Source: Kofleriaceae bacterium (GTDB taxonomy: Bacteria > Myxococcota_A > Polyangia > Haliangiales > Haliangiaceae). Taken from it: a stretch of 64,000 bases of DNA. Position 1 is the first letter of the stretch, and the number at the start of each line of letters is the position of its first letter. The notes below the pieces were generated by a model. That model was not told where the DNA came from, made no database searches, and worked only from the letters and a program-made list of their open reading frames with translations. A program made the translations under genes and the position numbers. Of the stretch, positions 2,405 through 63,267 are shown piece after piece. The DNA is taken from assembly GCA_965215005.1 (NCBI GenBank), contig CBDCCZ010000018.1, positions 192,001-256,000 on the forward strand, written 5' to 3'.

Positions 2405-2460
2405 GACTCCAGCACGGGTGCGCGTGTCGGCCGCGGGCAGAAGCATCGGCGCAAAGCCTA

Positions 2461-5443: not shown

Positions 5444-5456
5444 TGCTGGGGTCCTT

Positions 5457-5472
5457 CGCACGTGGAATGCCA
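5457..5472 (-). promoter_or_regulatory. Putative sigma54 -24/-12 promoter of the amidase gene
   Basis: TGGCATTCCACGTGCG with GG-N10-GC spacing; 14 nt between GC and ATG. Confidence 0.5.
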
Positions 5473-5752
5473 GACCCCAGCAGCCGTAACTAGCTGTTTC
5501 TACAACGCAAACATCGCAAACAGCGAGTTGCACTGGGCACTGGCGTCCCACCCTGGTGCCAACGATGATGGGCAGCATGCGCTGCGAACGCAAGCGGGCT
5601 TGATCGACCGCTCAGCGGCCAACAGAAGTACCCTTACCAAAGACAGCACGAGGTCCTCGAATGTCAGCAATGGAGAATGCGCGTCGGAGGCGCGTTGGAT
5701 GCAACCGTCGCAGCTGGGCGCGTTGGATGGAACTTGGTATGGTGCCGCCTTC

Positions 5753-7696
<1,944 letters not shown>

Positions 7697-7708
7697 CCAG
7701 GAGCCGTC

Positions 7709-8461: not shown

Positions 8462-8504
8462 CCGCGAGCCATGCGCGCAAGCTCAACCGAGCGAGCCTTT
8501 AGCT

Positions 8505-9921: not shown

Positions 9922-9942
9922 CCTACGCCAGGCAACGCGGCT

Positions 9943-10820
9943 TCACGCGCTAGAGTCAGCGTCGGGGGCGAGCTGCGCGACGATCATGGAACCGAGCATC
10001 AAGGCGCAACCAAGCAGTTGCCCGTGGCGCCAGTGACTCGTCCAGGAGCCAAGCGCCAGCGAGCGCAGCAAACACCGACTCCATGCTGAGCAGCACCGCA
10101 ACGTGCGCGGCCGAGGCGTGCCGCTGGGCGACCACTTGAATGGTGAACGCGACGCCAACCGAGAGCACGCCGCCGTAGGCGATAGCCCCCGCGGCAGCCG
10201 ACATCGCGCTGCTCGCGATAGTCTCGGTAAAGCCCAGCCGCGACACTCGCGAGCAGCGCCACCACCGTAAACTGCACCACCGCGAGCTCGAATGGATCTT
10301 GGCTGGGCGCGACCCGCGCGACGATCAGCACATGCACCGCCCACAGCACCGCGCAGGCGAGCACGAAGCCATCACCGCGGCTAAAGCTCGCCCCGCCAGA
10401 GACGCTCAATAGGTACAAGCCAGCCACCGCCAAGGCCGCCGCCGCCCACATCGAGCGCGCCACCCGATGGCCAGAAATCAAGCCGAGGAGCGGCACGATG
10501 AGGACATAGAGACCGGTGATGAAGCCGGCCTTGGCCGCCGACGTGGTGACCAGGCCTATCTGCTGCAGCGCCGCGCCGCCAAACAGCGCCACGCCCGCGG
10601 CCAACCCACCCGCTAGCGGCAACCGACGCGGATGGGCCGCACGCCGGCGGCGAACCAGCACCAGCGGCAGCACCACCAGTGCTCCCAGGGTAAAGCGCGC
10701 CGCGGTGAAGGTCATGGGCCCCACGTGGTCCATACCGAGGCGCTGCGCGACGAAGCCGGTTCCCCAGATCAGGGCGGCGACCAGCATCAGCGCGTCGGCT
10801 CGCAGGGTCTCGCGGCGCAT
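9943..10820 (-). CDS. EamA/DMT family transporter, frameshifted near 3' end
   Basis: Multiple TM helices (IWGTGFVAQR, AGFITGLYV); continues in frames 9956-10246 and 9943-10344. Confidence 0.85.
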
Positions 10821-10841
10821 GTCGGCGGCGGGGCCGCGCCC

Positions 10842-46432: not shown

Positions 46433-47770
46433 ATGAGCGCGAGCGAGTCAGGTATTTGGGTAACACGTGACGGAGGGCAGCCGCGTGTCGTCCTGCGCGC
46501 TGTGCGCATCGAAATCGTCAATGGACCGGGCTCGGGCACCTCGATGACGTTTCAGCAGCCACGCATTCGAGTGGGCGCGCTGCCGGAGAATGACATCGTG
46601 CTCGAGGATCCTCGCGCCTCCGGCGTGCACTTCGAAGTGATGCTCACCGAGACCGGGCTGCGCGTGCGCGATCTCAACTCGACCAATGGCACCGTGGTCG
46701 AAGGGGTTCGTATCGTCGATGGCTACGTTCAGCCGCTACAGCGGATCACCGCCGGACGAACGCAGCTGATGATCGTGCCGACCGGCGCAAGCCACGAGCT
46801 GCCACTCGCCACAGGCGCTGAGTTCGCCGACATCGTCGGTAGCAGCATCGCGATGCAGCGCGTGTTCGGAATGCTCGGCCCGGTGGCGCCAACCGATGCG
46901 ACGGTGCTGCTAACCGGCGAGACGGGCACTGGCAAAGAGGTCGTCGCAGAAGCGATCCACGGCGCCTCGCCGCGAGCCAATGGACCGTTTGTGGTCGTCG
47001 ATTGCGGCGCCATCCCCGCGACGCTGTTCGAAAACGAGCTCTTCGGCCACAAACGCGGCGCGTTCACTGGCGCCGACAGCGACGCTCCTGGGGCTTTCGA
47101 GCGCGCTCACGGTGGCACTCTCATGCTCGACGAAATCGGCGAGCTGCCACTCGACCTTCAGCCCAAGCTGCTTCGCGTCGTGCAGTCGCGGACGGTGCAG
47201 CGCGTCGGCGGGAGCAAGCGCGTGCCGTGTGACGTGCGCATCATCGCCGCGACCAACCGCGATCTACTGCGCGAAATCAATGGCGGCGGGTTTCGCGCCG
47301 ATCTCTACTATCGGCTCGCGGTCGCCCACATCGAGCTGCCACCGCTGCGTGAGCGCGATGGCGACATCGCGCTGCTCGCCCACTACTTTGCCAACGCCAT
47401 CACCGAGGATCCTGGGAGACAACTTCCAGCGGAGCTGATCGAGCAGTTCGAGCGGTACTCGTGGCCCGGCAATATTCGCGAGCTTCGCAACGCGGTCGAG
47501 CGCGCTCTCCTGCTTCCGCACCTGCCCCCTAAGCTCGGCCACGGCGTCTCGGCCGCGCCCGACGGCCCCGGATTTTGGGTTCCGGTCGACACCGCTATCG
47601 GATTCAAAGAAGCGAAACAACAACTCATCGATGAGTTCGACCGGCAGTACGTCACGCAGCTGCTTGATGAGAATCAGCGGAACGTTGCCCGTGCCGCGCG
47701 TGCCGCCGGAATCGACCGCGCGTCATTGCACAAGATCATGGCCCGCGTTGGCATCCAGCGGCCCCAATGA
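46433..47770 (+). CDS. FHA-domain sigma54-dependent enhancer-binding protein
   Basis: FHA ([12 protein letters not shown]), [29 protein letters not shown]-terminal Fis-type HTH. Confidence 0.93.
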
Positions 47771-48679
47771 TCCTGCTGCATCCAGCTCCTGCGCCGGCGG
47801 CTGAACCTCAACCACGGTTCCCACAGGGGGAAGCTCAGTCGTCGCCGCGTTGCCAATCTGCGCTTGCACGAAGATCAGCTGCGAAGCGGAATCGACCACC
47901 GCGGCCACCGAGGTGATCGAAGCCTGCCAAGACGTCGCGCCAAGATGGGCCGTTACCGGGGCGCCAACGACAAACGCGGGCGCCCGCTCTGGCCGCACGG
48001 CGAAGCGCAAATCGCGCTCCTGGGACATCAGCTCGACGATGGGCTGCTCGGCCGCAACGGTTGCGCCAGCATCGAAGCGCCGTGCCGCGACATGTCCGGC
48101 CAACGGCGCGCGTAAGGTTGCGCGCTCACGCAGCTGCGCGAGCTGATCGCGAACCGTGCGGTGACGCTCGATTCCCGCGAGGCTTCGCTCGAGCTCCGCC
48201 TGCCCTTGCGCCCGCGCCGACCGCGCATCGCGCAGCTGATTGCTCGCCGCCGCCTGCGCGCGCACCAGCTTCTCGACCGCCCTCACCTCTTGACGTGCCG
48301 TGCGCAACGCGACCCGAGCTTGGGCGGCAATTGCTTGCGCCTCACGCAATGCGCTATCGGCCGCTTCGAGCTCAGCATCGAGCTCTTCGGTCTGCAGGGT
48401 CGCCAATACCGCTCCCTCGGCGACGAAATCACCGACCTCGACGCGCATTTCTTCGACCCGTGCTGGCACCGGCAACGAGACGGCTACCTGGCGTCGCGCC
48501 ACGATGACGCCGATGAATCGCTCCACGCCCCTGCGCGCCGTCGTGGCCACAGGTCGCATCTGCCGCGTCGTAGGTGCCTCGAGCGGAGTGGCCTCACACC
48601 CGGCGATCATCGCGCAGCCGAGCAGTATCGGCAGGTGCCGCGCCACGCCATACCACGGTGAGTCGATGATCCTCTTCAT
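47723..48679 (-). CDS. Efflux periplasmic adaptor (HlyD/MFP) lipoprotein
   Basis: IAGC lipobox, lipoyl half-motifs ([19 protein letters not shown]), coiled coil. Confidence 0.85.
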
Positions 48680-50939
48680 TGGCTTCCTTCCAGTCATGCT
48701 CGGGCGCCGTCGGACGAGACCGTCCAGGAGGTGCAGGGTTTTTGCGAGAAGCGCCGAGCTGCGCGCGCACGAGTCGGGCGTAGCGTCCTCCCGCGGCCAG
48801 CAGCTCATCGTGGGTGCCTCGCTCGACGATGCGACCGCGATGCACCACCACGATGAGGTCCGCATCGACCACCGTGCTGAGGCGGTGGGCGATCTGGATG
48901 CGGGTCATGCGGAGCCGCTTGAGCTGACGCACCACGCGCGCCTCCGTCTCCGCATCGAGCGCGCTCGTGGCTTCGTCGAGCAGCAGCGCCACGGGGCGAG
49001 CGAGCAGTGCCCGCGCCAGCGCCAGTCGTTGCCGCTGACCGCCCGATAGCGACTGCCCGCGATCAGCGAGCGGAGTCTCGTAGCCCATCGGCAACTTGGC
49101 GATGTCATCGTGAATGCAGGCGGCCTTGGCCGCCGCAACGACGCGATCGAGGTCCGCATTCGGATCGGCCAGCGCGATGTTGTCGCGAATCGAGGTATCG
49201 AAGAAGTAGGGGTCTTGCGGCACCGTCCCCAGCTGCGCCCGAACCGCACGAAGATCGAGGCGTTCGAGCGGGTGCTCATCGAGCAAGATGCGTCCCGCGG
49301 TTGGCGCGTACAAGCCGAGTAGCAGCGCCGCAAGGGTTGATTTGCCCGATCCAGACTCACCGACGATGGCGACGTTGGTGCCCGCGGGAATCTGCAGCGA
49401 CGTGTCGCGGATGACGTCGGGACCGGCATCGCGATAGCGAAATGAAACCTGGTCGAGCTCGATTGCCCCCGTGAGCCGCGTGATCTTTCCCGGCTCCGAC
49501 TGTTCGGGCTCCACATCGAGAACGTCCTTGAGTCGGTCGAGGTGACCTCGTACCTGTTGCAGGGACAGCGCGCTCGCCACCAAGTTTCCAAGTGGCTCGA
49601 GGAACGAGCCGGCGAGCGCGTTGACCGCCAGCATGGTGCCAAGCGACAGCTCGCCGTGGACCACGCGCACCGCGCCGACGCTGAGGATTGCCAGCGGCGC
49701 GGCCGTGCGGAGGGCGCCGAGCAGCGCATCTACCGTGGCGCGCGACCGGCTCATGTCCAACCCGGCGTTGAGCATGTCAGCCAAATCATGGCTCCAACGC
49801 TCCACCGCCCGCTGCTCGGCTCCTGCTAGCTTCAGGGTGCCGATTGCCGACAGCGCTTGCACCAAGTACGACTGCGAGCGTGCGTTGGCATCGACCACAC
49901 TCGCCTCGAGATCCTCAAAGCGGCGCCGCGTCACGAGAAGGATCACGAGCTGCAGGATTCCAAATCCCGCCACCAGCGCGGCCACGATGGCGTCTGCAAT
50001 CAAGATGATGATCAGATAGAAGACGACGAGCCCGCCGTCGATGAGCGCCGACAACGTCTGCGACGTGAGTAGCTCGCGGATGGTTTGATTGCTGGCGATG
50101 CGCGACAGCAAATCTCCGGTCGAGCGGCGCTGAAAAAAACTATACGGCAAGCTCACCAGATGGCCGACGAAGCCGAGCGTCATCCGGGTATCCAAGTCGG
50201 TGCGCATTTGCAGCAGCAGATGCGCGCGGACCAGCGACGAGAGCATCTTGAACACGACCAGCGTTGCGAGGCCGAGGCCGATCAGGGTGAGCATGTCGAG
50301 ATCGCCCTGGGGAACCACGCGGTCGACGATCAAGCCGGTGAGCAGCGGGACGGCGAGCGCGAACACCTGCAGCAGTGCTGACATCGCAAGGATTCGCCCG
50401 AGTCGCGCGTTCATCTGTCGCAAGAACGCGCGCACCAGGCCGCCGCTCGGCAGCCGGCGCACGAAGGTGTCACCCGGCGCTAGCTCCAGAGCGATTCCGG
50501 TGAATGAACGCGACACCGCCTCGCGGCTCAGCGCGCGCCGCCCGCGCGCCGGATCCACGACGTGCACAAGGCCCCGAGCCACCCGCTCGAGCACCACGAA
50601 GTGATTGAATTCCCAGTGCAGGATGGTGCCCGCCGGCGCATGTTCGAGCTCGTCGAGCTCGAGCGACACGCCGCGTCCGCGCAAGCCGAATCGCTCACCG
50701 GCGGCAACGATGCCGCTGGCGCTGGTGCCCGCGTCGCTGGTCCCCGCCGCAACCCGCACCTCCCCCAGCGGTACGTGGCAGCCGTGATGCGCCAGCACCA
50801 TTGCCAGACACGCGGCGCCGCAGTCGGCAGCCTCCATCTGCCGCACAATCGGAATCCGCCGCCGGCGCGGCACGAGCTTGGTGAGAGCGGGAAATCGCTT
50901 CGTATCGACAGGCGCCAAGGCAGGCGGCGAATTGGCCAT
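48594..50939 (-). CDS. Peptidase-containing ABC transporter (C39 PCAT), double-glycine peptide exporter
   Basis: QMEAADCGAAC, HWEFNHFVV, ABC membrane domain, GESGSGKST, LSGGQRQR, LDEATSALD. Confidence 0.95.
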   Translation of the reverse strand: MANSPPALAPVDTKRFPALTKLVPRRRRIPIVRQMEAADCGAACLAMVLAHHGCHVPLGEVRVAAGTSDAGTSASGIVAAGERFGLRGRGVSLELDELEHAPAGTILHWEFNHFVVLERVARGLVHVVDPARGRRALSREAVSRSFTGIALELAPGDTFVRRLPSGGLVRAFLRQMNARLGRILAMSALLQVFALAVPLLTGLIVDRVVPQGDLDMLTLIGLGLATLVVFKMLSSLVRAHLLLQMRTDLDTRMTLGFVGHLVSLPYSFFQRRSTGDLLSRIASNQTIRELLTSQTLSALIDGGLVVFYLIIILIADAIVAALVAGFGILQLVILLVTRRRFEDLEASVVDANARSQSYLVQALSAIGTLKLAGAEQRAVERWSHDLADMLNAGLDMSRSRATVDALLGALRTAAPLAILSVGAVRVVHGELSLGTMLAVNALAGSFLEPLGNLVASALSLQQVRGHLDRLKDVLDVEPEQSEPGKITRLTGAIELDQVSFRYRDAGPDVIRDTSLQIPAGTNVAIVGESGSGKSTLAALLLGLYAPTAGRILLDEHPLERLDLRAVRAQLGTVPQDPYFFDTSIRDNIALADPNADLDRVVAAAKAACIHDDIAKLPMGYETPLADRGQSLSGGQRQRLALARALLARPVALLLDEATSALDAETEARVVRQLKRLRMTRIQIAHRLSTVVDADLIVVVHRGRIVERGTHDELLAAGGRYARLVRAQLGASRKNPAPPGRSRPTAPEHDWKEANEEDHRLTVVWRGAAPADTARLRDDRRV

Positions 50940-52940
50940 CTAGAAGATCCTCTCGAGTCCTGGGAACAAGCTAATGAGGAGCGACTCCGACCGAACCTCG
51001 ATGTCGACGGTGGCTGCCATCCCGTGATGAAAACGATGGGTGACGCCGTCGATCACGAATCCTTCGCTCGGCAACGCCACCCGCACGAACACCACCGCGG
51101 TGGTGATCGGAACGGCGTCGCCGAGCAGGCTGCCGAGACGACGAGCAGCCGCCCCCGGACCAAGCGCCTCATCGCCAACTTCGACGATCGGCAGCTCGAG
51201 ACGAACACCGCGATGGCCAGCAAGGGAAACACGGGCGCGATCGCCAAGCTCGATGAGAGGACGACGAGCGGCGGGAATGGCCGCCAAGACGCTCATTTCG
51301 GGGTCGGCAGCGACAACGGAGAGGATGGGCGCGCCGGCGGCGACGGTAGCTCCGCTGCGCAAGAGCACTTCGCCGGCCACGCCCGAACGAGGAGCGCGAA
51401 TCGAGTGTCGCTCTACCGCGCGTTCGGCCTGCTCACGCCGTGCACTCAGCTCCACGAGTGCCTGGCCTGCAACCGCGTCTCGCGGATCCATGAGACGCTC
51501 GATGAGGCGACGGTCGAACTGATGCTGGAGCGCGGCAAGCTCGGCTCGGGCACCCTCGTCGCGCAACTGCGCGACCACCTGCCCTGCTTGCACGCGCTCG
51601 CCCGGTTCGACGACGACAGCTTCGAGAACGCCGCTTAGCTCGGCAAGCGCGTCGCTGCGCTCATCAGCGACGACGACGGCAACGCCGCTCGCATACTCGC
51701 CGACCCGACCGACGCATAGATAGACCGCCGCGGCGGCGAAGAACGCGACGATGATCCAGTAGACGATGTTGACCCACGGTGAGTGCACGCGAACAACGTG
51801 CCCGCGGTCCCGCCGGCGCCGGTGCGCGTCGATCGCCTCAGGTCGAAACACGCTGGCTTCGGAGGCGACCGGTTGCGCCTCCAGCCCCCAGGAAAGCGCA
51901 TCGAGGAGAGGCCCACAGGCGGCGGCGAAATCGGCCGCGATGGCACGTTCGCGCGCATCGAAAGGAGCGCCACGCCCGTCTCTAGCCGCGATCCACACCG
52001 CGTGGAGCTCTTCGGCGCCATGGACCGGCTGCACCAGTAGCCGCGCCTTTGGGCCGAGGCCGAGGTCGTCGACCGCCGCGCAATATTGCGGCGCATCACC
52101 GGCCCGTTCGACCGCAAGGCAAACGCCTCGCCGGAGCGCCTCGCCAGCGAGACCGAGCAGGCCCTCGACCTCGAAATCATCACCGGGCTCATCTGCCTCG
52201 TACGCCAGAGTTGCTGCCTCCGCATCGACATAGAGACAACGCGCGCGATCGGCATCGATCAGTTGGGCGAGCTCACGGGCCATGACGCCGCTGCTGTCGC
52301 GCGTGCTTGGCTGCATCGCGACACGCCGCAGCGCAGCGCCGATCTTACCGCGGCCCCGGTCGGCTGGCGGTACCGCATCCACAGCCGTGGGGCTCCATTC
52401 TGCAACCGGGTCGACGCGCACCAGCGGCGCAGTGGGCTGCTCGGCGATCGGTAGCAGCTCGAGTGGGTTTGCGCTGGGGGCCGATGGCCACGATCTCGCT
52501 GCCGCGATGGCGCCGGCACCTGCCACTTGGCCGAACGGTGGGGACGGCTGTCTCACGCTTGGGAGTCCGCTAGAATCCATCCCGCGGTCGCTTGCGGCTT
52601 CGAGCAACGCGCTGCGAAGCGCGTGCGGCGACAAACTCCGGGACAACGGCCGCGCGCGCCGGGAGGGAAGCACCCCAGCAGCGTCGATGAGCGCGAACAC
52701 CGGGCCACACTGCCGCGTGCACAACCACTCAATCAGCGCTGCAGCGTGCTCGGTGGGCGCGCCGACGACGATGGCGTTGAACCCACGCTGACCGACAGCG
52801 GCAACGGCTTGCGCGGCGGTCTCGACGCCAACGACCTCACACGGCGCGAGGCGCTCGCGTAGCCACGACCAGGTTCTTTCGTCAGCGTCGCACACCAGAA
52901 ACGAAGCGAGCGGAGCCGGTGGTCGCGCCGGACGAGCCAT
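50940..52940 (-). CDS. HlyD-family secretion adaptor with N-terminal receiver-like and GAF domains
   Basis: GAF-like region (ADRARCLYVD...LLVQPV...PFDARE), VFRPEA motif, TM, lipoyl/coiled-coil HlyD body; abuts the PCAT start. Confidence 0.85.
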   Translation of the reverse strand: MARPARPPAPLASFLVCDADERTWSWLRERLAPCEVVGVETAAQAVAAVGQRGFNAIVVGAPTEHAAALIEWLCTRQCGPVFALIDAAGVLPSRRARPLSRSLSPHALRSALLEAASDRGMDSSGLPSVRQPSPPFGQVAGAGAIAAARSWPSAPSANPLELLPIAEQPTAPLVRVDPVAEWSPTAVDAVPPADRGRGKIGAALRRVAMQPSTRDSSGVMARELAQLIDADRARCLYVDAEAATLAYEADEPGDDFEVEGLLGLAGEALRRGVCLAVERAGDAPQYCAAVDDLGLGPKARLLVQPVHGAEELHAVWIAARDGRGAPFDARERAIAADFAAACGPLLDALSWGLEAQPVASEASVFRPEAIDAHRRRRDRGHVVRVHSPWVNIVYWIIVAFFAAAAVYLCVGRVGEYASGVAVVVADERSDALAELSGVLEAVVVEPGERVQAGQVVAQLRDEGARAELAALQHQFDRRLIERLMDPRDAVAGQALVELSARREQAERAVERHSIRAPRSGVAGEVLLRSGATVAAGAPILSVVAADPEMSVLAAIPAARRPLIELGDRARVSLAGHRGVRLELPIVEVGDEALGPGAAARRLGSLLGDAVPITTAVVFVRVALPSEGFVIDGVTHRFHHGMAATVDIEVRSESLLISLFPGLERIF

Positions 52941-52952
52941 GCAGCGGCCCTT

Positions 52953-52968
52953 TGCACCGGTCGTGCCT
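52953..52968 (-). promoter_or_regulatory. Sigma54 -24/-12 promoter of the export operon
   Basis: AGGCACGACCGGTGCA; nearly identical to the precursor promoter at 57565. Confidence 0.75.
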
Positions 52969-53020
52969 CGCTAGATGTCGTGTGATTTCGCTCGCCAAGC
53001 GCGAAACGTGACTGCGCGGC

Positions 53021-53056
53021 GTTGCCGGCTCGCAACGACTGTAGGCGCGCGGCGAC
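53021..53056. promoter_or_regulatory. Tandem enhancer (UAS)-like boxes
   Basis: GTTGC-N6-GCAAC, 4 nt, GTAGG-N6-GCGAC. Confidence 0.6.
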
Positions 53057-53110
53057 GCCCACTGCGCGCGCCAACGACGAGCGGTATAGTCTTTGCTCAT
53101 TGCGGTCGCG

Positions 53111-56100
53111 ATGCGATGGGAGTCCCCGAAAGGACGCGTAACTGCTGAAGAGCTGGCCGAAACTGTAGCTACCTCGGATACACAAGGTGTAACCAAAGAC
53201 CCAGGTCAGGGTCATCATCCCCCGCCGGACCTACCTAATCCTGGGGATCGGGTCGGCCGCTACCGGCTGGGCTCGGTCATCGGTAGCGGCGGCATGGGCT
53301 GCGTGATGCGCGCCGAGCACGTCGATCTAGGTCGCCAGGTGGCGATCAAGTTCATGCTCACAGCCAAAGAGCAGGCCGAGGCAAACGTCGTGCGCTTCTT
53401 TCGCGAAGCACAGCTCGTCAACCGCATTCGCCACCCGCACGTCGTCGACGTCACCGATATCGACTGGCTACCCAGCGGCGCCGTCTACATCGTCATGGAG
53501 CTGCTGCACGGGCGCTGCCTGCAACGGGCGATCAGCACCGGACCACTGCCGCTGGGTCTCATTCAACGCATCGCGCACCAGTCGGCGGCGGCGCTATCGG
53601 CGGTGCACGCGGCGGGCATCATTCATCGCGACATCAAGCCCGGCAATTTGTTTCTCTGTGATGATCAGGCTGAACCACACCTAAAGATCCTCGACTTTGG
53701 TGTCGCCAAGCTCGGGGCCGACAGCGTTGCAAAGGCAGACGTTCTCACCGTGGCGGGCGGAGTCGTCGGCACGGTCGCCTACATGGCTCCAGAACAAGCA
53801 CGCGCTGAAGAACTCGATGCCCGCGCCGACCTGTTCTCGCTCGCTGCGACGCTCTACGAAGCAGCCACCGGATATCGGCCGTTTCGCAGTCATGCGCTCG
53901 GCGCGTTGGTCCACGAGCACACCACGTACGTGCCGCCGCGGCTTTCACAGGTTTTAGGCGCCGGCGTCGTGCCGGCGGCCCTCGATGAGACCATCGCCAG
54001 TGCGCTTCAGGTCGATCCCCACCGACGCCCCCCCTCCGCCGCCGCATTTGCCGATGCGCTCTCCGGATCCACCCCGCCAGCACGCTCGCTATCGCTGCCG
54101 GCGCCTCGGCCGCGGGCTGCCCGTAGCTCCCGACACACCGCAGTCGCCGTATGCCTTCACGCGCATGGCGCTGGGGCGGCGTTACGTGCGATCGCCGAGG
54201 CCACCGAGGCTGCCGGCGGGCTCGTGCTCGAGCGAAAGGCGAGCGCGCTCACCGCACTATTCGGAGTTCCCGACGTCGACAGCAGCACGTTTGCCCGCGC
54301 GCTCGAGGTTGCCGAAAGCGTTCGCGACGTGAGCATCGTGCTCGAGCTCGGTCGTGTGCGGGTCCGGCGAGCTCCCACAGGCATCGTGGCGACAGGCTCG
54401 CTGCTCACGCGGCTAGCGCGGCTAGCTAGCATCACGTGCCCAGGCCTGCGACTTGGTCCCAACGCGCACCGCTGGGTGTATCCGCTCGCGAGCGGTGATG
54501 CCGAGATGCCGCGGCCCGACGCACGGCCATCGCATCACGGTGAGCTCGTTCGTATGGTCAGCGCCGCTCTGGCTGGCGATGACACCGCCTGCCACATCGT
54601 CATCGACGGGCCGCCAGGCGCGGGCACTACCTACAGCTTGCATACGGCGCGGGAGAAATTCGACGCCTCGGCCCGGTGGCACGCCGCTCGCGCGCGACCG
54701 GGCGATCGCGGTTTCTACGCCACTCTGACGCACCTCGTCCCTGCCCTGGCCGAGCAGCTGCGGGCAGCGCCGACGCGACACGATGAACGAATTGATGCGT
54801 GGCTAACCGCGGAGGTGAGCTCCGGGCCGTTGGTCATTGCCCTCGATGACGCCGAATACGCCGATGAAGCCAGCATGGCGACGCTGCGGCGCCTCGCGGA
54901 GCTCGGCCGTGGAAAGCCGATTGCCGTGATCGTGGCGGGTCACCAACTCGACCACGACGGCGGTCAGCGACTCTCACTCGAGCCGCTCGCCGACCGCGCA
55001 GCAACGCAGCTCGCCGCCGCCCTCGCTCCAGCGGCCTCACGCGCCGAGATTGATGCGGTCGTAGCACGCGCAGCGGGCTGTGCTCGTTACGTCGTCGAGC
55101 TCGCGCGAGACCTCGATGCGAATGGCTCCGGCGCCGAAGAGTCAGCAACATCCCCGGCGCTCGAGCTGGCGACACGAGCGCATCTCGACGCCATGCTTCC
55201 CCACGCCCGACGCATCTACGAAATCGTAGCGATTGCGCAACAGGCGGGCTGGGCGGAGCTATTGGTCGCGCTGGCCGTCGCCCGCGGCTCGACCGCCGAC
55301 GAGGCACGCGAAGCGCTCTGGGAGCTCGAGGAGTGCGGCGCGATCGTGGCGGCGGAGGACGGACCTGCGACTTCTGAGCGATTCGTCGCCGCTGTGCCGG
55401 TTCTCGCCGAGACGGCGTATCGCGAGCTCAGCAGCGAACAGCGCCGCGCCCTGCACCTCGATTTGGCCACCCGCCTCGAAGCGGAGGGTGAGGCCGAAGC
55501 AGTTCCCGCAATTCCGTCTTTGCTCGCCGCGGCCCGCCAGTATGCTGCCGCTGGCGCCATCGATCACGCCGCTCGCTGCGACCGCCGCGCAGGGGCCGCA
55601 CTGCTGGCCGCCGGCGATCATCGCGGTGCGCACGCTGCACTGGTGCGCGCCATCGACGCCAGCGCGCCGTCGAGCGAGCTGCTCGAACAAGCCGGCGACG
55701 CGGCGATGGTTGCCGCCGGTCTGGACGCTGCGCAAGACCTCTATGCGCGGGCCCTCGACCTATCGGAACCCGACGAGCTCACCCGCGCACGCCTATGGCG
55801 CAAGCTCGGCGACTGCGCGACCCAGCGTGGAGACAACGCTGTGGCGGCGGCGTACTACGAGCGGGGGATTGCAGCGCTGGCTCCCGATGGCGAGCTCACG
55901 CCGAGAGCAGAAGCCGACGCGGTGACCGCGGCAGAGCTTTACGCCGCGCTGGGATGGCTGCGCGGCTATCAGCTCGGCGATTTCGAGATTGGCTCGCAAC
56001 TCGGAGCTCGCGCGCTCGAGCTATTGGAGGGAACCGAGCACCAGCAGGCGCTCGCGCACGCTTTGTCGCGGTTGGGTGGCTGCTACATGCGAGGGGGGCG

Positions 56101-56797
56101 CTACGCGGAACAGCTCGCGTGCAACGAGCGGACTCTCGAGGTGTCCATCGGCCTCGGTGATACCTGGATGGAGATGATCGCTCGACTCAACCTCGGAATT
56201 ACCTACTTGACCACCGGAAGGATTACCGAAGCGCGCGCTCAAACCACCCGCGCCTTGGCAATGGCGCGACGCACCGACTCGGTTCGCGTCGAAACCGTGG
56301 CCACCAACAACCTTGGCGCCATCGAGCTCGAAGCCGGAGATCCGTATCGCGCACTCGCTCACTTTGAACGCGCCGCAGAGCTGGTGCTCCGCTCGGGTTA
56401 CCGCTCGGTGCTACCAGAGCTCCACCGCGTCCGCGCTCGCGCCTACGCAGCCATAAACGATCTCCACCGCGCCAACCGCGACGCCCGACGCAGCCGCGCG
56501 CTAGCAACGCAACTCGAGGCCAGCTTCGAGGCCGGGCTTGCCGCGCGCGTGTTGGCGCTGATCGCGCTCCGGCTCGACAACCCGCAGCGGGCGAGCGCGT
56601 TACTCGACGAAGCGGCGGCACAAATCGGCACGCGCGACCCGCTCGAGTGCGCCAGGCTGAGCGTCGCGCGGGCGCTGCTTGCGCGCGCGGAGGGCGCCCC
56701 CGACGCCGATGACCAACTCGCCGCCGCGCACTCCGAGCTCGAGCGCCTCGGCCTCGCCCATGAGATCGCCGCGTTTGCAGCCAACAGCATCCGCTGA
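53111..56797 (+). CDS. Ser/Thr kinase - degenerate AAA/STAND NTPase - TPR multidomain protein
   Basis: GSGGMG, VAIK, HRDIKPGN, DFG and YMAPEQ motifs; Walker A-like GPPGAGTT and Walker B VIALDD; C-terminal TPRs; start uncertain. Confidence 0.88.
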   Translation: MRWESPKGRVTAEELAETVATSDTQGVTKDPGQGHHPPPDLPNPGDRVGRYRLGSVIGSGGMGCVMRAEHVDLGRQVAIKFMLTAKEQAEANVVRFFREAQLVNRIRHPHVVDVTDIDWLPSGAVYIVMELLHGRCLQRAISTGPLPLGLIQRIAHQSAAALSAVHAAGIIHRDIKPGNLFLCDDQAEPHLKILDFGVAKLGADSVAKADVLTVAGGVVGTVAYMAPEQARAEELDARADLFSLAATLYEAATGYRPFRSHALGALVHEHTTYVPPRLSQVLGAGVVPAALDETIASALQVDPHRRPPSAAAFADALSGSTPPARSLSLPAPRPRAARSSRHTAVAVCLHAHGAGAALRAIAEATEAAGGLVLERKASALTALFGVPDVDSSTFARALEVAESVRDVSIVLELGRVRVRRAPTGIVATGSLLTRLARLASITCPGLRLGPNAHRWVYPLASGDAEMPRPDARPSHHGELVRMVSAALAGDDTACHIVIDGPPGAGTTYSLHTAREKFDASARWHAARARPGDRGFYATLTHLVPALAEQLRAAPTRHDERIDAWLTAEVSSGPLVIALDDAEYADEASMATLRRLAELGRGKPIAVIVAGHQLDHDGGQRLSLEPLADRAATQLAAALAPAASRAEIDAVVARAAGCARYVVELARDLDANGSGAEESATSPALELATRAHLDAMLPHARRIYEIVAIAQQAGWAELLVALAVARGSTADEAREALWELEECGAIVAAEDGPATSERFVAAVPVLAETAYRELSSEQRRALHLDLATRLEAEGEAEAVPAIPSLLAAARQYAAAGAIDHAARCDRRAGAALLAAGDHRGAHAALVRAIDASAPSSELLEQAGDAAMVAAGLDAAQDLYARALDLSEPDELTRARLWRKLGDCATQRGDNAVAAAYYERGIAALAPDGELTPRAEADAVTAAELYAALGWLRGYQLGDFEIGSQLGARALELLEGTEHQQALAHALSRLGGCYMRGGRYAEQLACNERTLEVSIGLGDTWMEMIARLNLGITYLTTGRITEARAQTTRALAMARRTDSVRVETVATNNLGAIELEAGDPYRALAHFERAAELVLRSGYRSVLPELHRVRARAYAAINDLHRANRDARRSRALATQLEASFEAGLAARVLALIALRLDNPQRASALLDEAAAQIGTRDPLECARLSVARALLARAEGAPDADDQLAAAHSELERLGLAHEIAAFAANSIR

Positions 56798-56887
56798 TCT
56801 CTCATATTACTACTGGTCCAAAGAGCACCTAGCGCTAGCGCGGCACGAAGCGAGGCTCCAGACGGCATGTTCTCGCAAATAGGGCTA

Positions 56888-56914
56888 ATGCCCTCGCACT
56901 AAGCGCGAGGGCAT
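56888..56914. terminator. Hairpin downstream of precursor B / kinase gene
   Basis: ATGCCCTCGC-actaagc-GCGAGGGCAT, 10-bp perfect stem, 17 nt past the stop of 56932-57138. Confidence 0.65.
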
Positions 56915-56931
56915 CAAAGGACAGATTTCTT

Positions 56932-57138
56932 TTAGAACTTGCCGCCGCTGTAGAGGCCAGTACCGGTAACTTCGAAGTGAGCTTCCGCCGCCCGGCCGTG
57001 AGCCGCGAACGCCTCGCCACGGTTGTCCCACGCCCAGTCAGCCGCGCCCGTGATCGCTTCGCTAGCCGCGAGCTCGAGCAAGAACCTACCGACACCTCCG
57101 CCGGCGACATTTACAGTATTCAGATCGATGGTCTTCAT
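56932..57138 (-). CDS. Putative double-glycine-leader precursor peptide B (68 aa)
   Basis: MKTIDLNTVNVAGG leader plus 54-aa core; GGAG RBS, own sigma54-like promoter and downstream hairpin. Confidence 0.7.
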   Translation of the reverse strand: MKTIDLNTVNVAGGGVGRFLLELAASEAITGAADWAWDNRGEAFAAHGRAAEAHFEVTGTGLYSGGKF

Positions 57139-57202
57139 TGCTATCTCCCGTTCCTTTAGAAGGTTTGAGCCGCGACACATTCGCGACGTTGACCAAAGCC
57201 TT

Positions 57203-57218
57203 TGCGAACAACGGACCA
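57203..57218 (-). promoter_or_regulatory. Sigma54-like promoter of precursor B
   Basis: TGGTCCGTTGTTCGCA with GG-N10-GC spacing. Confidence 0.55.
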
Positions 57219-57270
57219 ATCGCCTACCTCGTAAACATCAGTCGTCCCGTCCCCTCCCTCCAGACTCGAT

Positions 57271-57306
57271 GTTGCCCGCAAGCCTCAGATGTCGCCAGCC
57301 GATGAC
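57271..57306. promoter_or_regulatory. Tandem UAS-like boxes (degenerate)
   Basis: GTTGC-N6-GCCTC, 4 nt, GTCGC-N6-ATGAC. Confidence 0.45.
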
Positions 57307-57477
57307 GTAAATGAGAGTCTGCACCGGATGCGTGATGAATAGTCCCTTCTCCTTATTAACGCGTGATTATGAAATTCGACTGGATCCTCAAACGGGCATA
57401 CGAGTGGTCTACGAATCTTCAGCCTTGGGCGAGGTGAATGGTGACGGCACGCACTGGCGCCGTCTCACCTATCGCGA

Positions 57478-57514
57478 GTTGCCAGGCGGCGACAGTCCGT
57501 CGCTCACCTGCAAC
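57478..57514. promoter_or_regulatory. Tandem UAS-like boxes
   Basis: GTTGC-N6-GCGAC, 5 nt, GTCGC-N6-GCAAC. Confidence 0.65.
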
Positions 57515-57564
57515 ATCCCACGCCGCTAGAACGGCTAGAGGGGCTTACGAATAGGCATTTCGCC

Positions 57565-57580
57565 TGGCACAACCGGTGCA
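57565..57580 (+). promoter_or_regulatory. Sigma54 -24/-12 promoter of the precursor A-JmjC operon
   Basis: TGGCACAACCGGTGCA. Confidence 0.8.
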
Positions 57581-57622
57581 ATCCCCCAACTCGTTCAATC
57601 CACACCTTCAGAGGAGTAAACT

Positions 57623-57838
57623 ATGAAGAACCAGCGAAAGTCTCTCTCTCTCCAAGATCGCGCGCAGCTCCACGATGCCGCGCTCGATACCGTCTCCGGT
57701 GGCACGACGATGCCGCGCATGCCACCGGTCGGTCCAGAGCCGTTTCCGTGGGGCATCATCATCGAGCCTCCTCCGACTGGAGGGCTGCCGTTCCCCACGC
57801 CTCCCGGATTTCCCTACGGCATACCGGGACTGGGCTAA
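57623..57838 (+). CDS. Putative RiPP precursor A: double-glycine leader plus Pro-rich core (71 aa)
   Basis: GAGGAG RBS; leader ends LHDAALDTVSGG (L-12, L-7, V-4, GG); core TTMPRMPPVGPEPFPWGIIIEPPPTGGLPFPTPPGFPYGIPGLG. Confidence 0.85.
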   Translation: MKNQRKSLSLQDRAQLHDAALDTVSGGTTMPRMPPVGPEPFPWGIIIEPPPTGGLPFPTPPGFPYGIPGLG

Positions 57839-57841
57839 CCG

Positions 57842-59080
57842 ATGGTCGCGGGTTCGTCCGTCGGAGCTCGAGAAGCGCACGATGAGGCTCCGGCGGCGGC
57901 CCTCGCCGCCCTGTTCGGTAGCGACGGCGCACGAGCTTTCGCCGGCCCACATTGGCCGCATCACCCGTTCGTCGTCCATCGCACGCTCTCGCAGCTGCCG
58001 AGCGCACTGCGGGCACCGCTGCTACTCGACCCGCGCGCCCTTGCTGCCGTCTACCGCGGCACCGTCGAGGTAACGAACGGTCGCGCGGGCCAATTTCGCC
58101 TCAGCGGCGTCGATCCGAATGTCTACTTTGAAGTATTAGGCCTTGCGACTCGCTTTAGCGAGCTCCAGCAATACGTGCCCCAAGCAGCATCGTACTTGCG
58201 CGAGCTCGAGGCCGCCCTGGGCGCGCCGAATGGCTGCGCGAGCCTTCATGCGTTTGTTAATCCGGCTCATGTGGGTCTCGCCGCGCACTGCGATCCGGCG
58301 GAGCATATCGCTGTGCAACTCGCCGGCAAGAAGCGGTTCAAGGTGCTGCGCAACGAGGTTCCCTATGCGGCAGTCTCCCATGGTGCTCGTCGCCCCCCTT
58401 CACGCCGCACACTAGCGACGATTGGTGGTCATCTGCCGCGCTGGGAGCGACTTCCCGAGACCGCAGAGACCATTGACCTCGAGCCGGGCTCGGTCCTATT
58501 CATGCCGCGCGGCACGTATCACGAGACTCTCGGCGGTGAAGGCGAGCCATCCGTCACGCTCGTCATTCAACTCGCAGTTCCCAGTGCAGCAGACGTCTTC
58601 TTAGACTATCTACGCGACTATTTGGCGCAGGCAACACCTTGGCGCCAGCCGCTCTTACACACCTGGCGCGGCGCCTCTCCGGCCGCACAGGCGCACCTTC
58701 GAGACAGTCTCGATGACCTTGCCGAGCGACTCCTCCGCCTATCGCCTCAACAAATGATCGATGCGCGCTCTCCTGCACTCACGCTCGATTACGCACGATT
58801 GGTTCGCGCGCCGGGCGTCGAGGTCCGCGTCACAATCGACGACGACCAAATGTGCGTCCAGTTCGTAGCCGACGATCGCAGAGCCAGCGCCCCGGTCGAG
58901 CTGGCAGCCGAGCTGAGCAGCGTCTTCGACTGGCTGCTCGCACAAACCGACCCATTCTCGCTCGCGGCCGCGCAACAGGCCCTCCCAGAGTGGGAGCCGG
59001 ACGCTATCGAGGCAGTGGCGCAGTTTCTGCTCGCGCGTGGTGCGTTGCTCTCGCTTCCCATCGAGCCGTTCAATGCGTAA
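57842..59080 (+). CDS. JmjC/Cupin_4 (YcfD/ROX-like) Fe(II)/2-oxoglutarate oxygenase
   Basis: AHCD..EHIAVQLAGKKRF and LEPGSVLFMPRGTYH give the HxD...H facial triad; C-terminal winged-helix-like region. Confidence 0.88.
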   Translation: MVAGSSVGAREAHDEAPAAALAALFGSDGARAFAGPHWPHHPFVVHRTLSQLPSALRAPLLLDPRALAAVYRGTVEVTNGRAGQFRLSGVDPNVYFEVLGLATRFSELQQYVPQAASYLRELEAALGAPNGCASLHAFVNPAHVGLAAHCDPAEHIAVQLAGKKRFKVLRNEVPYAAVSHGARRPPSRRTLATIGGHLPRWERLPETAETIDLEPGSVLFMPRGTYHETLGGEGEPSVTLVIQLAVPSAADVFLDYLRDYLAQATPWRQPLLHTWRGASPAAQAHLRDSLDDLAERLLRLSPQQMIDARSPALTLDYARLVRAPGVEVRVTIDDDQMCVQFVADDRRASAPVELAAELSSVFDWLLAQTDPFSLAAAQQALPEWEPDAIEAVAQFLLARGALLSLPIEPFNA

Positions 59081-61133: not shown

Positions 61134-62984
61134 TTACTGCGGCGTCTGACCCGGATTAAGGGCGCCAAAGGTGGAGTCGCCCTGGGTCCAGTCGCTCGAG
61201 TCGTTCGCGTCGGTGTCGCTTAGCCGCTGCAGCGAGGGTCCCGTCGATTCGGCTGGCGCGGCATTGTTGTTGTAGACCGCGTGCGGGTGGAAATCGCCAT
61301 CCACGAAGCCCATCGCTGGGACTCCGCCGCCGACCATCTGCCACTGCGCCGCCGCCGCCACCACCGCTGCCTGTGCTTCGGTGCCTGCAGCGGTATTGGG
61401 CTCGTACATCGGATCATCGACCGCTTGATCGGTCACGAAAACGGCGTCGAGAATCGCGCCAGCAGCGTCATAGAGGGTAAACACGTTGTTGGTGCGGGTG
61501 AGGCCGCTATCTGCCGACCACCAGTCGAACGCGGTGTCGTAGTTGCCAGCGTACTCCGCAGCCGGCTGGGCAGCGATGCCGTCGCGCTCGTCGACGACGC
61601 TAGCTGGGGCACACCTAGCGGTATCGAGGTGAACGACGATGAGGTCATTGGTAGCGACCTCGAAGTCGCTGAAGGTGATGAGCGTTTCGCGATCGCGTTC
61701 CTGCAGCACGACGCCGTTCATCGTGCCTCCGCTGAGCACGCGGAGCTCGATGAGGTCGCATTGGCCATTGTTCTCGCCAACGATGTTGGACTTCACCTCG
61801 TTGATGCGCACAGCGGCCACCGCGGTGTAGCCCGCAAAGGTAGCGGTGTTGGCGTCAGCTGCCACGGGCTCGCCATCGCGATCGGTCACGGTGTCGGCCA
61901 CGGTAACGGTGTAGTCGGCGGCGGTTTGCGCGGCGGTCGTGAGAACCACGGTGGTGTCATCGGCGGGGTCGAGCGCGGCGCCGGTGACGGCGAGCGCGGT
62001 GCCGCTGCTATCGATGATGCTGAAGCCAGCGGCTACGACCGAGTCAGTCGCAAGTGGCCGGCTGAAGGAGAGCCGCACCTCGGTGGCGGAGGCGGCAACC
62101 GCCGTGTTCAAGCGCGGCGAAGCGCATTGAGTGATCGTCACGTCCTCGGCGACGAACGCGGCGAGCTGCAGTCGGTCGCGGAATCGACCGACGGGCGTTG
62201 CTCGAAGTGAAAACATGCAGCCTTCGGTGAGACCGAGCTCGTCATCGAGCTCCTCGGGTACACGCAGCAAGAAATTTGCCTCACCCGTGATACCCGGGGT
62301 TTCGATCGTAGCGGCCTGAAATCCACTACCGGCGAAATCGAAGGCCGAGGTAACGGTGCCGCTCATCGTGATCAGCTCGCTCTCGTAGTCGTCGATGTTA
62401 GTCACCAGGTCGGTGGCGCTGGAGAGATCCTGCACGAGCGGCATGAGGTCGTTTGCTTCGCTGCTGCGAGCCCAGTCGGTGAGCGCCGTGGCTTGCCGCA
62501 ACCCATTGACGGTGCCCATCGAGGTAATCGTGAAGCTGACGGCATCGCCCACCGCGGGAGCTGGTGTCAACGTGGTCGGATCAATGGCGACGAAGAGCGC
62601 CGGCCCGGTTGCATCGACCTGCACGGTGAACCCGGCGACGTCACTGCCGATGCTCGGCTTTAAATAGGTTACGAAGGCGTTGACGATGGCGATAGAGAGG
62701 CCTTCGCCGTCGGCGGCCGCACGCGCAGCAGCGATGCCTTCTGCGCCGGGGTCCGTGGGATCGGTCGGGTCCGTGGGATCGGTCGGGTCCGTGGGATCGG
62801 TCGGGTCCGTGGGATCGGTCGGGTCCGTGGGATCGGTCGGGTCCGTGGGATCGGTGGGATCCGTTGGGTCCGTGGGCATCGCGTCGGGCATGTCATTGCC
62901 GGACGAGCCTTCGTCGTCGCCACAAGCGGCAGCCATCATCGCTGCCACAAACAAGAGCAGTCCAAACCATTTCAAGCGGAGCAT
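61134..62984 (-). CDS. Surface lipoprotein with PTD-repeat linker, Ig-like and lamin-tail-like domains
   Basis: Lipobox AAAC; (PTD)n; VRLSFSRPL Ig-like; VRINEV...IELRV lamin-tail-like. Confidence 0.75.
   Translation of the reverse strand: MLRLKWFGLLLFVAAMMAAACGDDEGSSGNDMPDAMPTDPTDPTDPTDPTDPTDPTDPTDPTDPTDPTDPTDPTDPTDPGAEGIAAARAAADGEGLSIAIVNAFVTYLKPSIGSDVAGFTVQVDATGPALFVAIDPTTLTPAPAVGDAVSFTITSMGTVNGLRQATALTDWARSSEANDLMPLVQDLSSATDLVTNIDDYESELITMSGTVTSAFDFAGSGFQAATIETPGITGEANFLLRVPEELDDELGLTEGCMFSLRATPVGRFRDRLQLAAFVAEDVTITQCASPRLNTAVAASATEVRLSFSRPLATDSVVAAGFSIIDSSGTALAVTGAALDPADDTTVVLTTAAQTAADYTVTVADTVTDRDGEPVAADANTATFAGYTAVAAVRINEVKSNIVGENNGQCDLIELRVLSGGTMNGVVLQERDRETLITFSDFEVATNDLIVVHLDTARCAPASVVDERDGIAAQPAAEYAGNYDTAFDWWSADSGLTRTNNVFTLYDAAGAILDAVFVTDQAVDDPMYEPNTAAGTEAQAAVVAAAAQWQMVGGGVPAMGFVDGDFHPHAVYNNNAAPAESTGPSLQRLSDTDANDSSDWTQGDSTFGALNPGQTPQ
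62749..62876. repeat. Coding tandem repeat, 18-bp unit (two 9-bp subunits), encoding about 14 Pro-Thr-Asp units
   Basis: Five perfect copies of gggtccgtgggatcggtc plus degenerate copies. Confidence 0.95.
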
Positions 62985-63267
62985 GCGCGCCTTATACACC
63001 ACTTCTGGGGCGATACCGTCTCGTCACTTCACTCGCTCGTTGCAAACGAACATAAGCGGAATTCCTTGGCATTTGCCGAACCAGCGACCAAAGCTCGGCG
63101 GCCGATGAGTCCTCCCATAACCTCCTGCGACCGAGTGAGCTGCCGATCTCTACGAACGGCATTCTTTTGTTGCAGCAGGTAGTCGATGGTCCTACTCCAG
63201 CGTTTGTAAGCAACACTTTGATTTGCAAGGAGTAACTGGAATGAACTGCAACAAACGTTCAAACGCG

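Follow-up and report, generated by a model that had tools for sequence, protein, structure and literature searches.

A candidate RiPP-like system in a Kofleriaceae bacterium: a GG-leader precursor coupled to a JmjC oxygenase beside a peptide exporter and an FHA-type sigma-54 activator

Within a 64-kb stretch of the genome of a Kofleriaceae bacterium (GenBank assembly GCA_965215005.1, contig CBDCCZ010000018.1; hereafter the window), we analyzed the region 46433–59080, in which PepA, a small precursor-like peptide with a double-glycine (GG) leader, precedes a JmjC-type Fe(II)/2-oxoglutarate (2OG) oxygenase. The region also holds a peptidase-containing ATP-binding cassette transporter (PCAT) with two HlyD-type membrane fusion proteins, a large Ser/Thr kinase and an enhancer-binding protein (EBP) with an FHA domain (Table 1). 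The hlyD1, PCAT and second hlyD genes form a three-gene operon reading leftward. All genes that a first-pass annotation had named were recovered at their coordinates in the list of open reading frames (ORFs), the translations and a Pfam scan of 13 proteins between 43.5 and 63 kb. This includes the JmjC gene, whose start codon lies 3 nt past the PepA stop codon, the C39-type PCAT with its two HlyD adaptors, the kinase-AAA-TPR gene and the FHA activator, whose GAFTGA loop is visible in the translation. Likewise, the stated lack of lanthipeptide, YcaO, radical-SAM and lasso-type enzymes was borne out, as none of the corresponding Pfam domains was found in the 13 proteins scanned.

Table 1 Genes and promoter elements of the region, in window coordinates.
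Feature	Position	Strand	Details
FHA-domain sigma-54 enhancer-binding protein	46433–47770	+	445 aa; Pfam FHA, Yop-YscD_cpl, Sigma54_activat (E 7e-67), AAA_lid_14; GAFTGA loop
HlyD/RND-type membrane fusion protein 2	47723–48865	-	Pfam HlyD_3, HlyD_D23; NCBIfam RND_mfp
PCAT	48594–50939	-	Pfam Peptidase_C39 + ABC_membrane + ABC_tran
HlyD-type membrane fusion protein 1 (hlyD1)	50940–52940	-	666-aa ORF; Pfam HlyD_3, HlyD_D23; NCBIfam type_I_hlyD
Sigma-54 type -24/-12 promoter AGGCACGACCGGTGCA	52953–52968	-	12 nt upstream of the first ATG of the hlyD1 ORF
Ser/Thr kinase + AAA (STAND-like) ATPase + TPR	53093–56797	+	1234-aa ORF; Pfam Pkinase E 4e-42, AAA_22/AAA_16, TPR_12/TPR_MalT
Peptide B, orphan ORF	56932–57138	-	68 aa; short GG-like leader (MKTIDLNTVNVAGGG...)
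Sigma-54 type -24/-12 promoter TGGCACAACCGGTGCA	57565–57580	+	ends 42 nt before the PepA ATG
Precursor peptide A (PepA)	57623–57838	+	71 aa; GG-type leader + Pro-rich core
YxbC/ROX-like JmjC Fe(II)/2OG oxygenase	57842–59080	+	412 aa; Pfam Cupin_8, JmjC_2

The pairing of PepA with the JmjC gene recurs outside the window. Homologues of the JmjC protein (E 1e-3 or better) were found in 11 of 61 related genomes, in four of them at 36–49% identity, and one scan each of a genome and a metagenome collection added 79 and 80 loci, respectively. In the window and at nine further loci (L026, L027, L028, L023, L125, L126, L129, L130 and L131; L021 and L022 are duplicate fetches of L026 and L027), a GG-leader ORF precedes the JmjC orthologue by 3–90 nt. 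Near-copies occur among these loci (L023/L130, L028/L129 and L026/L125), and about nine distinct peptides remain. At L024/L029, the GG-leader ORF is found ~2 kb upstream of the JmjC gene.

Phylogenies of the enzyme (FastTree, 149 rows; IQ-TREE, 46 rows under LG+C20+F+G4) united the ten peptide-linked JmjC proteins in a single 12-row clade (SH-aLRT 100), completed by two sequences (L127 and L128) from contigs that contain no upstream DNA. Each of the ten clade members with upstream sequence carries a GG-leader ORF (10/10), and the sister clade of 29 rows, mostly from Pseudomonadota, includes 0 peptide-linked enzymes; as the peptide labels were assigned from the same loci, the pattern is descriptive and should not be read as a statistical test. 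A hidden Markov model (HMM) of the leader, run over 35,016 ORF translations from 165 sources, matched at these loci only (13 rows, duplicate fetches counted). It missed L129, presumably because the open frame exceeds the length limit, and the GG ORF of this locus was found by other inspection. The enzyme family is rare, with 33 of 1.84 billion representative proteins matching at E 1e-30 or better and ~14 at E 1e-50 or better. Since the pair recurs in related loci, its association goes beyond chance: the coupling of PepA and the JmjC enzyme is real and specific to one clade. This clade-specific co-conservation lends support to the initial idea that the JmjC protein would act as the tailoring enzyme of the precursor.

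PepA itself has the features of a precursor of a peptide that is ribosomally synthesized and then modified post-translationally (RiPP). A GGAG ribosome-binding site is located 7 nt upstream of the gene, and the leader comprises residues 1–27, ending in LDTVSGG. Hydrophobic residues at positions -4, -7 and -12 relative to the GG, read from the translation, follow the rule for GG-type leaders. The remaining 44 aa form a core with 15 Pro and 8 Gly residues and the Phi-Pro motifs PFPW, LPFP and GFPYGIPG. Alignments of five and nine homologous precursors gave the leader consensus K-x-SLSxxDLxxLxxAxLxxVxGG; in the same alignments the cores diverge outside a common first motif, G-[I/F]-P-[W/P/L], and additional Phi-Pro repeats, with NGIPW, QGIPWPE, VFPYGL and PIGFPPA as examples from other loci. 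The PepA family thus combines a short precursor, a conserved leader and a variable core, as expected of RiPP precursors. The PepA leader matched no NCBIfam or Pfam leader model, and no NCBIfam model matched PepA, peptide B or the JmjC protein. Many Myxococcota (L109, L111–L113, L116, L117 and L120–L124) encode further GG peptides with a similar leader, KKLSLSKETLRxLxxxELxxVxGG, Cys-rich or other cores and no JmjC gene nearby; genome G075 alone has five peptides with leaders of this type.

Among solved structures, the JmjC protein is closest to YxbC of B. subtilis (1vrb/7zcc), with a profile E-value of 2e-44 and a Foldseek E-value to 1vrb of 5e-19. Together with the Pfam JmjC_2 and Cupin_8 matches, this assigns it to the JmjC double-stranded beta-helix fold. 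The Fe(II) triad H149, D151 and H227 is invariant in seven homologues, as is K164, which we take to be the 2OG-binding basic residue. The earlier label YcfD/ROX-like is a fair one, as NO66, MINA53 and YcfD align over the whole length in Foldseek. AlphaFold2 (AF2) models place a helical linker after the catalytic JmjC domain and, C-terminal to it, a domain resembling a RiPP recognition element (RRE; residues ~312–412, nt 58775–59077). These C-terminal 101 residues were modeled with a pLDDT of 91.3; three to four strands lead into three helices. Fold comparison with VIA-align ranked the C-terminus of MINA53 first (Z 9.0), ahead of bona fide RREs and peptide clamps, namely the PbtF RRE (8.8), TigE (8.3), MccB (8.1) and TbtB (8.1), followed by ThcOx (7.5), MibB (6.8), McbB (6.8), TbiB1 (6.4), LynD (6.3), NisB (5.7) and PqqD (5.4), where a Z of 7–8 is common. 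Foldseek retrieved the same families for this domain at weak E-values of 3e-3 to 0.1. The C-terminal domain is therefore predicted to be RRE-like in fold, a resemblance that does not amount to proof of leader binding.

Related JmjC genes are also found in other peptide-associated clusters. In the genome of the window, a second JmjC peptide cluster is located on a different contig (L025, G000:C14:127000-146999, mainly 590–10850), with three JmjC-like genes, a DUF4135 (LanM-dehydratase-like) protein and a Pkinase+AAA_16 protein encoded on the minus strand. Its precursor (within 6844–7335) seemingly has a Nif11-like leader ending in AAATGG, as judged by eye, and its core contains ENWG repeats; at 4808–4823 there is a sigma-54-like site. 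L104 (Enhygromyxa salina SWB007, per record; 500–21100) contains genes for radical-SAM, DUF6817, JmjC, nitroreductase, YcaO and two more JmjC proteins, after which come a gene for a GG-leader peptide, an ATP-grasp gene and a hlyD-PCAT-hlyD module whose PCAT is 51% identical to that of the window; this looks like a large multi-enzyme RiPP-like cluster with the same exporter module. In L024/L029 (metagenome-assembled genome (MAG) of a Haliangium sp., per record; L024 8391–14500), the gene for a GG-leader peptide whose 9-aa core reads NFANYQGSD precedes genes for a TylF-type O-methyltransferase, a 279-aa kinase, a JmjC protein, an FmdA/AmdA-like protein, a second JmjC protein and a Fur regulator. 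This recurrence of the JmjC family in peptide-modifying contexts of Myxococcota supports an interpretation of the window enzyme as a peptide modifier.

The export operon is well defined by its domains. The PCAT is complete, with full-length matches to PCAT1 (4ry2, E 3e-110) and ComA, and contains the N-terminal C39 peptidase, transmembrane domain and ATPase that characterize PCATs in Pfam. The translated C39 domain includes the stretch AADCGAACL, and we take the cysteine of its DCG motif to be the catalytic residue. In hlyD1, the HlyD part comprises residues ~380–660 and is preceded by a long cytoplasmic N-terminal extension of ~375 aa (51816–52940), which has no Pfam match and is missing from the hlyD1 orthologues in L023 and L104. 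A language-model feature search, which can serve as a lead only, scored this extension 0.95 for GAF and 0.91 for GAF+Response_reg, so that it looks receiver-like and GAF-like, which would be unusual for a HlyD adaptor. The true start of the second HlyD is probably internal, near 48679–48697, where a lipoprotein-like N-terminus can be seen by eye. Assignment to the NHLP/Nif11 bacteriocin export system (TIGR03796/03794) was rejected, since the PCAT and both HlyDs fall below the equivalog cut-offs and neither peptide matches an NCBIfam model; the PCAT scored 640 bits against NHLM_micro_ABC1 (cut-off 853), and the HlyDs reached 21–26 bits vs a cut-off of 156.

Both the pepA-JmjC and the export operon are preceded by sigma-54 type promoters. 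The element at 57565–57580 is the only exact match to TGGCAC-N6-TGCW in the window, and the one upstream of hlyD1 (52968–52953, minus strand) is a copy with one mismatch that agrees with the pepA promoter at 14 of 15 bases. A 15-mer common to both, GGCACRACCGGTGCA, occurs exactly twice in the 6.2-Mb assembly, before the pepA-JmjC and hlyD1 operons; one further genomic site resembles it, with a mismatch that destroys the GG. The genome encodes rpoN. Sigma-54-like sites of the form TGGCCG-N5-TTGCA were also found upstream of the precursor at three other loci (L026, L027 and L125); the relaxed sigma-54 pattern has a background rate of 0.015 per 250 nt. A scan for sigma-70 promoters and terminators between 56.7 and 59.3 kb yielded nothing above shuffled sequence. 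Sigma-54 promoters require an enhancer-binding protein, and the protein encoded next to the export operon has the domains of one with an FHA input, namely an AAA+ domain with GAFTGA, a C-terminal helix-turn-helix (HTH) and an N-terminal FHA domain. The motifs HRD, DFG and APE are intact in the adjacent kinase. The occurrence of the 15-mer at exactly two genomic positions ties export and the FHA-sigma-54 activator to the PepA-JmjC pair. Co-regulation of the pair and the exporter in this genome is well supported; the FHA-sigma-54 activator is the candidate for both promoters, and the neighboring kinase would be its natural input. Of the dedicated kinase/FHA-sigma-54 circuit suggested at first pass, the two near-identical, genome-unique promoters stand, and the activator and kinase that would act on them are predicted from position and domain content.

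The second small ORF, peptide B, was likewise proposed as a GG-leader precursor, with no mention of its location on the minus strand. It has a GGGAG ribosome-binding site and a GC content at third codon positions (GC3) of 0.71, and its leader fits the GG pattern provided that cleavage follows the third Gly. No homologue was found in 100 related genomes, where the other match (E 0.006) lies inside a 1012-aa frame and was taken as spurious, and the ORF itself was the sole match in a search of ~5.8 billion proteins within the near-length range. Peptide B was therefore rejected as a supported second precursor. Both ORFs exist and PepA is supported, and we treat peptide B as a candidate ORF, unproven as a gene. 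Another small frame, orf72 (57311–57529), was rejected as a gene because of its lack of a Pfam or NCBIfam match and of a ribosome-binding site, and its GC3 of 0.63; it sits where an upstream activator site would be expected and is probably non-coding.

A perfect, GC-rich inverted repeat (ATGCCCTCGC...GCGAGGGCAT) spans 56880–56925, in the gap where the kinase gene and peptide B converge. It could be a bidirectional terminator, but has no T-run and was not called in the terminator scan. Judging by Pfam, the genes upstream (for a thiamine pyrophosphate (TPP) enzyme and a carboxylesterase) and downstream (for an MscS channel) seem unrelated to the region. Further along, 61134–63002 on the minus strand encodes a predicted lipoprotein of 622 aa with ~14 PTD tripeptide repeats near its N-terminus and CopC and Big_5 domains.

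Overall, we consider it probable that the locus encodes a RiPP-like system in which PepA is modified by the JmjC enzyme, exported by the PCAT and placed under sigma-54 control through the FHA activator and the kinase. In such a pathway, PepA would be translated together with the oxygenase, as suggested by their observed adjacency and co-conservation, and the C-terminal RRE-like domain of the enzyme would hold the conserved leader. With Fe(II), 2OG and O2, the JmjC domain may then oxidize the core; hydroxylation, adding +16 Da at each site, is the most likely reaction. The most likely site would be the Phi-Pro motif G-[I/F]-P-[W/P/L], where our guess leans slightly towards the proline, nearly as much towards the preceding Phe or Ile, and least towards another residue. 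Judging from what is known of the PCAT family, the C39 domain would cut after Gly26-Gly27, and the PCAT would export the 44-aa core together with the two HlyDs. Both operons would be transcribed from the near-identical sigma-54 promoters observed upstream of them, fired by the FHA-sigma-54 activator, whose FHA domain points to control by the adjacent kinase-AAA-TPR protein. The exported product could be an antimicrobial or a signal.

Several observations weigh against this reading, and the first group concerns the enzyme. Its C-terminal domain is also present in ~30%-identical homologues from Pseudomonadota that have no peptide nearby (matches extend to query residue ~405), and it resembles the winged-helix domain of ribosomal oxygenases; the RRE-like fold is thus not specific to RiPP enzymes. 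Among these homologues, those of L035, L038 and L073 (Pseudomonas, Janthinobacterium and Caballeronia) lie amid luciferase-like monooxygenase, acyl-CoA-dehydrogenase-like, ABC substrate-binding and TonB-receptor-like genes as judged by eye, which suggests a metabolic role unrelated to peptides. Furthermore, the predicted JmjC-PepA complex was graded as weak support, with a score of 0.48 against 0.00 for the best control, a contact agreement between runs of at least 34% and a partner pLDDT of at least 43. Of 157 solved complexes, 116 reached the pass mark of this method, as did 2 of 215 mismatched pairs; no more than 18 of the 157 did so with a score of 0.60 or below, the range into which both passing mismatches fell.

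These points, along with the match of the JmjC architecture to NO66, MINA53 and YcfD over their full lengths, would fit an alternative in which PepA is an unmodified class II-type GG bacteriocin or pheromone and the JmjC protein acts on a ribosomal protein or a component of the kinase pathway. We regard this as very unlikely. Peptide and enzyme co-occur strictly in one clade at a spacing of 3–90 nt, and the otherwise divergent cores share a motif. Moreover, paralogous JmjC genes cluster with YcaO, DUF4135 or methyltransferase genes and with GG or Nif11-type precursors, and CzlI shows that the YxbC-like JmjC subfamily can modify RiPP precursors (PMC11575548). The class of unmodified class II GG-leader peptides was rejected for PepA on account of the co-conservation of the JmjC gene with the precursor. 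On two beta/gammaproteobacterial MAG contigs (L051, 2784–3155; L056, 1803–2156), the gene of the JmjC homologue is immediately preceded by an ORF for a Sec-signal-like peptide with repeated (H/Q)GT(V/G) motifs, which may represent a different kind of substrate.

The second group concerns the neighboring genes and bears on the claim of a self-contained cluster. A tblastn search of five flanked loci (L021, L022, L026, L027 and L028) found no PCAT, kinase or FHA-EBP within 10 kb of the pair, and none of a PCAT, kinase or activator was seen by eye among the ORFs in the ~3–6 kb flanking L126. These six lone-pair loci with several kb of flank derive from at least four distinct sources, and the claim was not upheld. 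Genomes with a lone pair carry one to four full-length PCATs elsewhere (49–56% identity), so that the exporter may be shared between pathways. Among the loci tested, the PCAT and kinase adjoin the pair only in the window and in G055 (L023), where a kinase-TPR gene, the JmjC gene, the peptide and a hlyD-PCAT-hlyD module lie within 11 kb; outside the window, no FHA-EBP homologue was found beside the pair. The expectation that GG peptide, JmjC gene and PCAT recur together in Myxococcota consequently holds for the pair, within one clade, and for the PCAT only in these two cases.

Consistent with a more general exporter, the hlyD-PCAT-hlyD module of L023 and L104 (PCAT identity 51–52%) follows an ATP-grasp gene in both, and in L104 also its own GG peptide, which suggests that the transporter belongs to another pathway or serves it as well. 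Among the 79 genome loci, a PCAT match covering the peptidase and membrane parts was found in one (L104), and 14 others matched in the ABC part only. Kinases adjoin related JmjC clusters in three other places, as Pkinase + TPR in L023, as the 279-aa kinase in L024 and as Pkinase + AAA_16 (1308 aa) in L025. It is accordingly conceivable that only PepA and the JmjC enzyme form a functional unit and that the PCAT, HlyDs, kinase and activator are general-purpose or unrelated neighbors, an explanation also favored by the lack of a clear orthologue of the FHA-EBP, whose best match outside the genome is 54% identical. We judge this explanation to be unlikely: the promoter 15-mer found only at pepA and hlyD1 argues for co-regulation, the activator gene abuts the export operon, and G055 has kept kinase, JmjC gene, peptide and PCAT together.

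The last group concerns the regulatory circuit. Nannocystaceae-type loci have no sigma-54 site upstream of the precursor and carry an AraC-type gene directly upstream instead (by Pfam in L023, on inspection by eye in the case of L129 and L130). In the window, the sequences preceding the two promoters share no word of 11 nt or more except the promoter itself. FHA-EBPs are highly paralogous, with ten in this genome, and the family was too paralogous for an orthologue to be named in a co-location test. In addition, the FHA domain seemingly has Gly-Ala, as judged by eye, where FHA domains usually carry the phosphate-binding Gly-Arg, a substitution that could weaken phosphothreonine binding. The kinase-AAA-TPR protein and the activator might instead be a stress or anti-phage signaling module unrelated to peptide production, given that the kinase domain is matched by PD-T4-6 and mad6 in PADLOC and the activator by RtcR_PspF models. 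This appears extremely improbable to us, as these matches cover only the generic kinase (residues ~50–340) and the generic AAA+/HTH domains, the JmjC protein, peptides and HlyD1 have no PADLOC match, and the sigma-54 promoters are those of the peptide and export operons.

The favored reading of a JmjC-modified, PCAT-exported and sigma-54-controlled PepA can be extended to a closed peptide-signaling loop of a hitherto undescribed kind. Hydroxylated PepA, once exported by the PCAT, would be sensed either by the TPR domain of the cytoplasmic kinase (RRNPP-like) or by the receiver/GAF-like extension of the HlyD, upon which the kinase would turn on the activator, and the latter would fire both promoters; PepA would then belong to a new RiPP family with a JmjC-RRE oxygenase as its sole class-defining enzyme. 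We consider this full version quite unlikely. If true, it would be a quorum-sensing-like autoinduction built from eukaryote-like kinase signaling and sigma-54. The genome-unique promoter pair would allow the connection of a Ser/Thr-kinase/FHA activator with peptide export to be tested in Myxococcota.

In comparison with known systems, the enzyme shares with the ribosomal oxygenases YcfD/RoxA, NO66 and MINA53 (PDB 4ccl, 4diq and 2xdv) a JmjC domain followed by a helical and a winged-helix-like C-terminal domain. It differs in that those act on ribosomal proteins and have no attached precursor gene, and the sequence similarity is low (E ~1e-8 to 1e-12); the gene context, with its coupled GG-leader peptide, argues for a substrate other than a ribosomal protein. 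The export part resembles PCAT1, ComA/ComC and NHLP/Nif11 (TIGR03796) in its GG leader, C39-ABC transporter and HlyD-type adaptor, but unlike these it has two adaptors, one with a receiver/GAF-like extension, and sigma-54 promoters in place of a two-component ComDE/BlpRH system.

FHA-domain sigma-54 EBPs of Myxococcus xanthus are coupled to Ser/Thr kinases, and the known examples control development. The activator described here is like them in its FHA, AAA+ (GAFTGA) and HTH domains, in its many paralogues per genome and in the eukaryote-like kinase next door. We know of no link between an FHA-sigma-54 EBP and a peptide-export operon.

An alpha-ketoglutarate (alpha-KG) dioxygenase that macrocyclizes RiPPs is reportedly described by Xia et al. 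2025 (J Am Chem Soc 147:26693), a study that has been cited for a JmjC-type RiPP context. Published precedents contradict the initial view that the cluster fits no RiPP class and is undescribed. CzlI, the YxbC-like JmjC protein of the curacozole cluster, converts Phe18 of its precursor to Tyr and requires sequence that flanks the core (PMC11575548). Like the enzyme in the window, it is an Fe(II)/2OG JmjC protein with YxbC as nearest structure and a comparable triad at nearly identical positions (H145/D147/H224 vs H149/D151/H227), a likeness taken from the published description. Unlike it, CzlI is accessory in a YcaO/azole, cyanobactin-like pathway (PMC11575548), whereas here a GG leader and a Pro-rich core are found with no other modifying enzyme. 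BipG, the JmjC ornithine hydroxylase of biphenomycin biosynthesis, acts after MNIO, radical-SAM or arginase enzymes (PMC12707348), whereas the JmjC protein described here stands alone. Membership in a curacozole- or biphenomycin-type family was rejected, since YcaO/cyclodehydratase as well as MNIO and B12-radical-SAM domains are absent from the 13 proteins scanned by Pfam.

MppG is an alpha-KG/non-heme-iron hydroxylase that carries an RRE and through it depends on the leader (bioRxiv 10.64898/2026.10.04.756588). Its substrate is a Nif11-leader lanthipeptide, in which two Trp residues become beta-hydroxylated; the leader was removed in vitro with the LahT150 protease (same source). It follows a lanthionine synthetase (same source), in contrast to the lone JmjC enzyme here, and the likeness is that of a 2OG-dependent side-chain hydroxylase of RiPP precursors. 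A 2025 survey describes fusions of JmjC (PF08007) and RRE domains and bacterial homologues in RiPP-like genomic contexts (PMC12710340). Enzymes of another family, alpha-KG-HExxH, are known to hydroxylate Pro at the beta position in a RiPP (PMC13060819). Hydroxylation of Pro or Phe/Ile at the Phi-Pro motif, if true, would be new chemistry for the JmjC fold.

A claim of a class without precedent is thus overstated. Our literature search found no JmjC-only GG-leader family; relatives of the enzyme could already be covered by Xia et al. 2025 or the supplement of PMC12710340, and the undescribed part still looks to be a family with JmjC as its only modifying enzyme. JmjC/2OG oxygenases have been recognized as RiPP tailoring enzymes only recently (2024–2026) and always as accessories to class-defining enzymes. 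Set beside these, the locus and its relatives would form a compact two-gene family of a GG-leader peptide and a JmjC-RRE enzyme with a recognizable core motif, whose simplicity would make it an easy system for learning how a stand-alone JmjC enzyme acts on a peptide.

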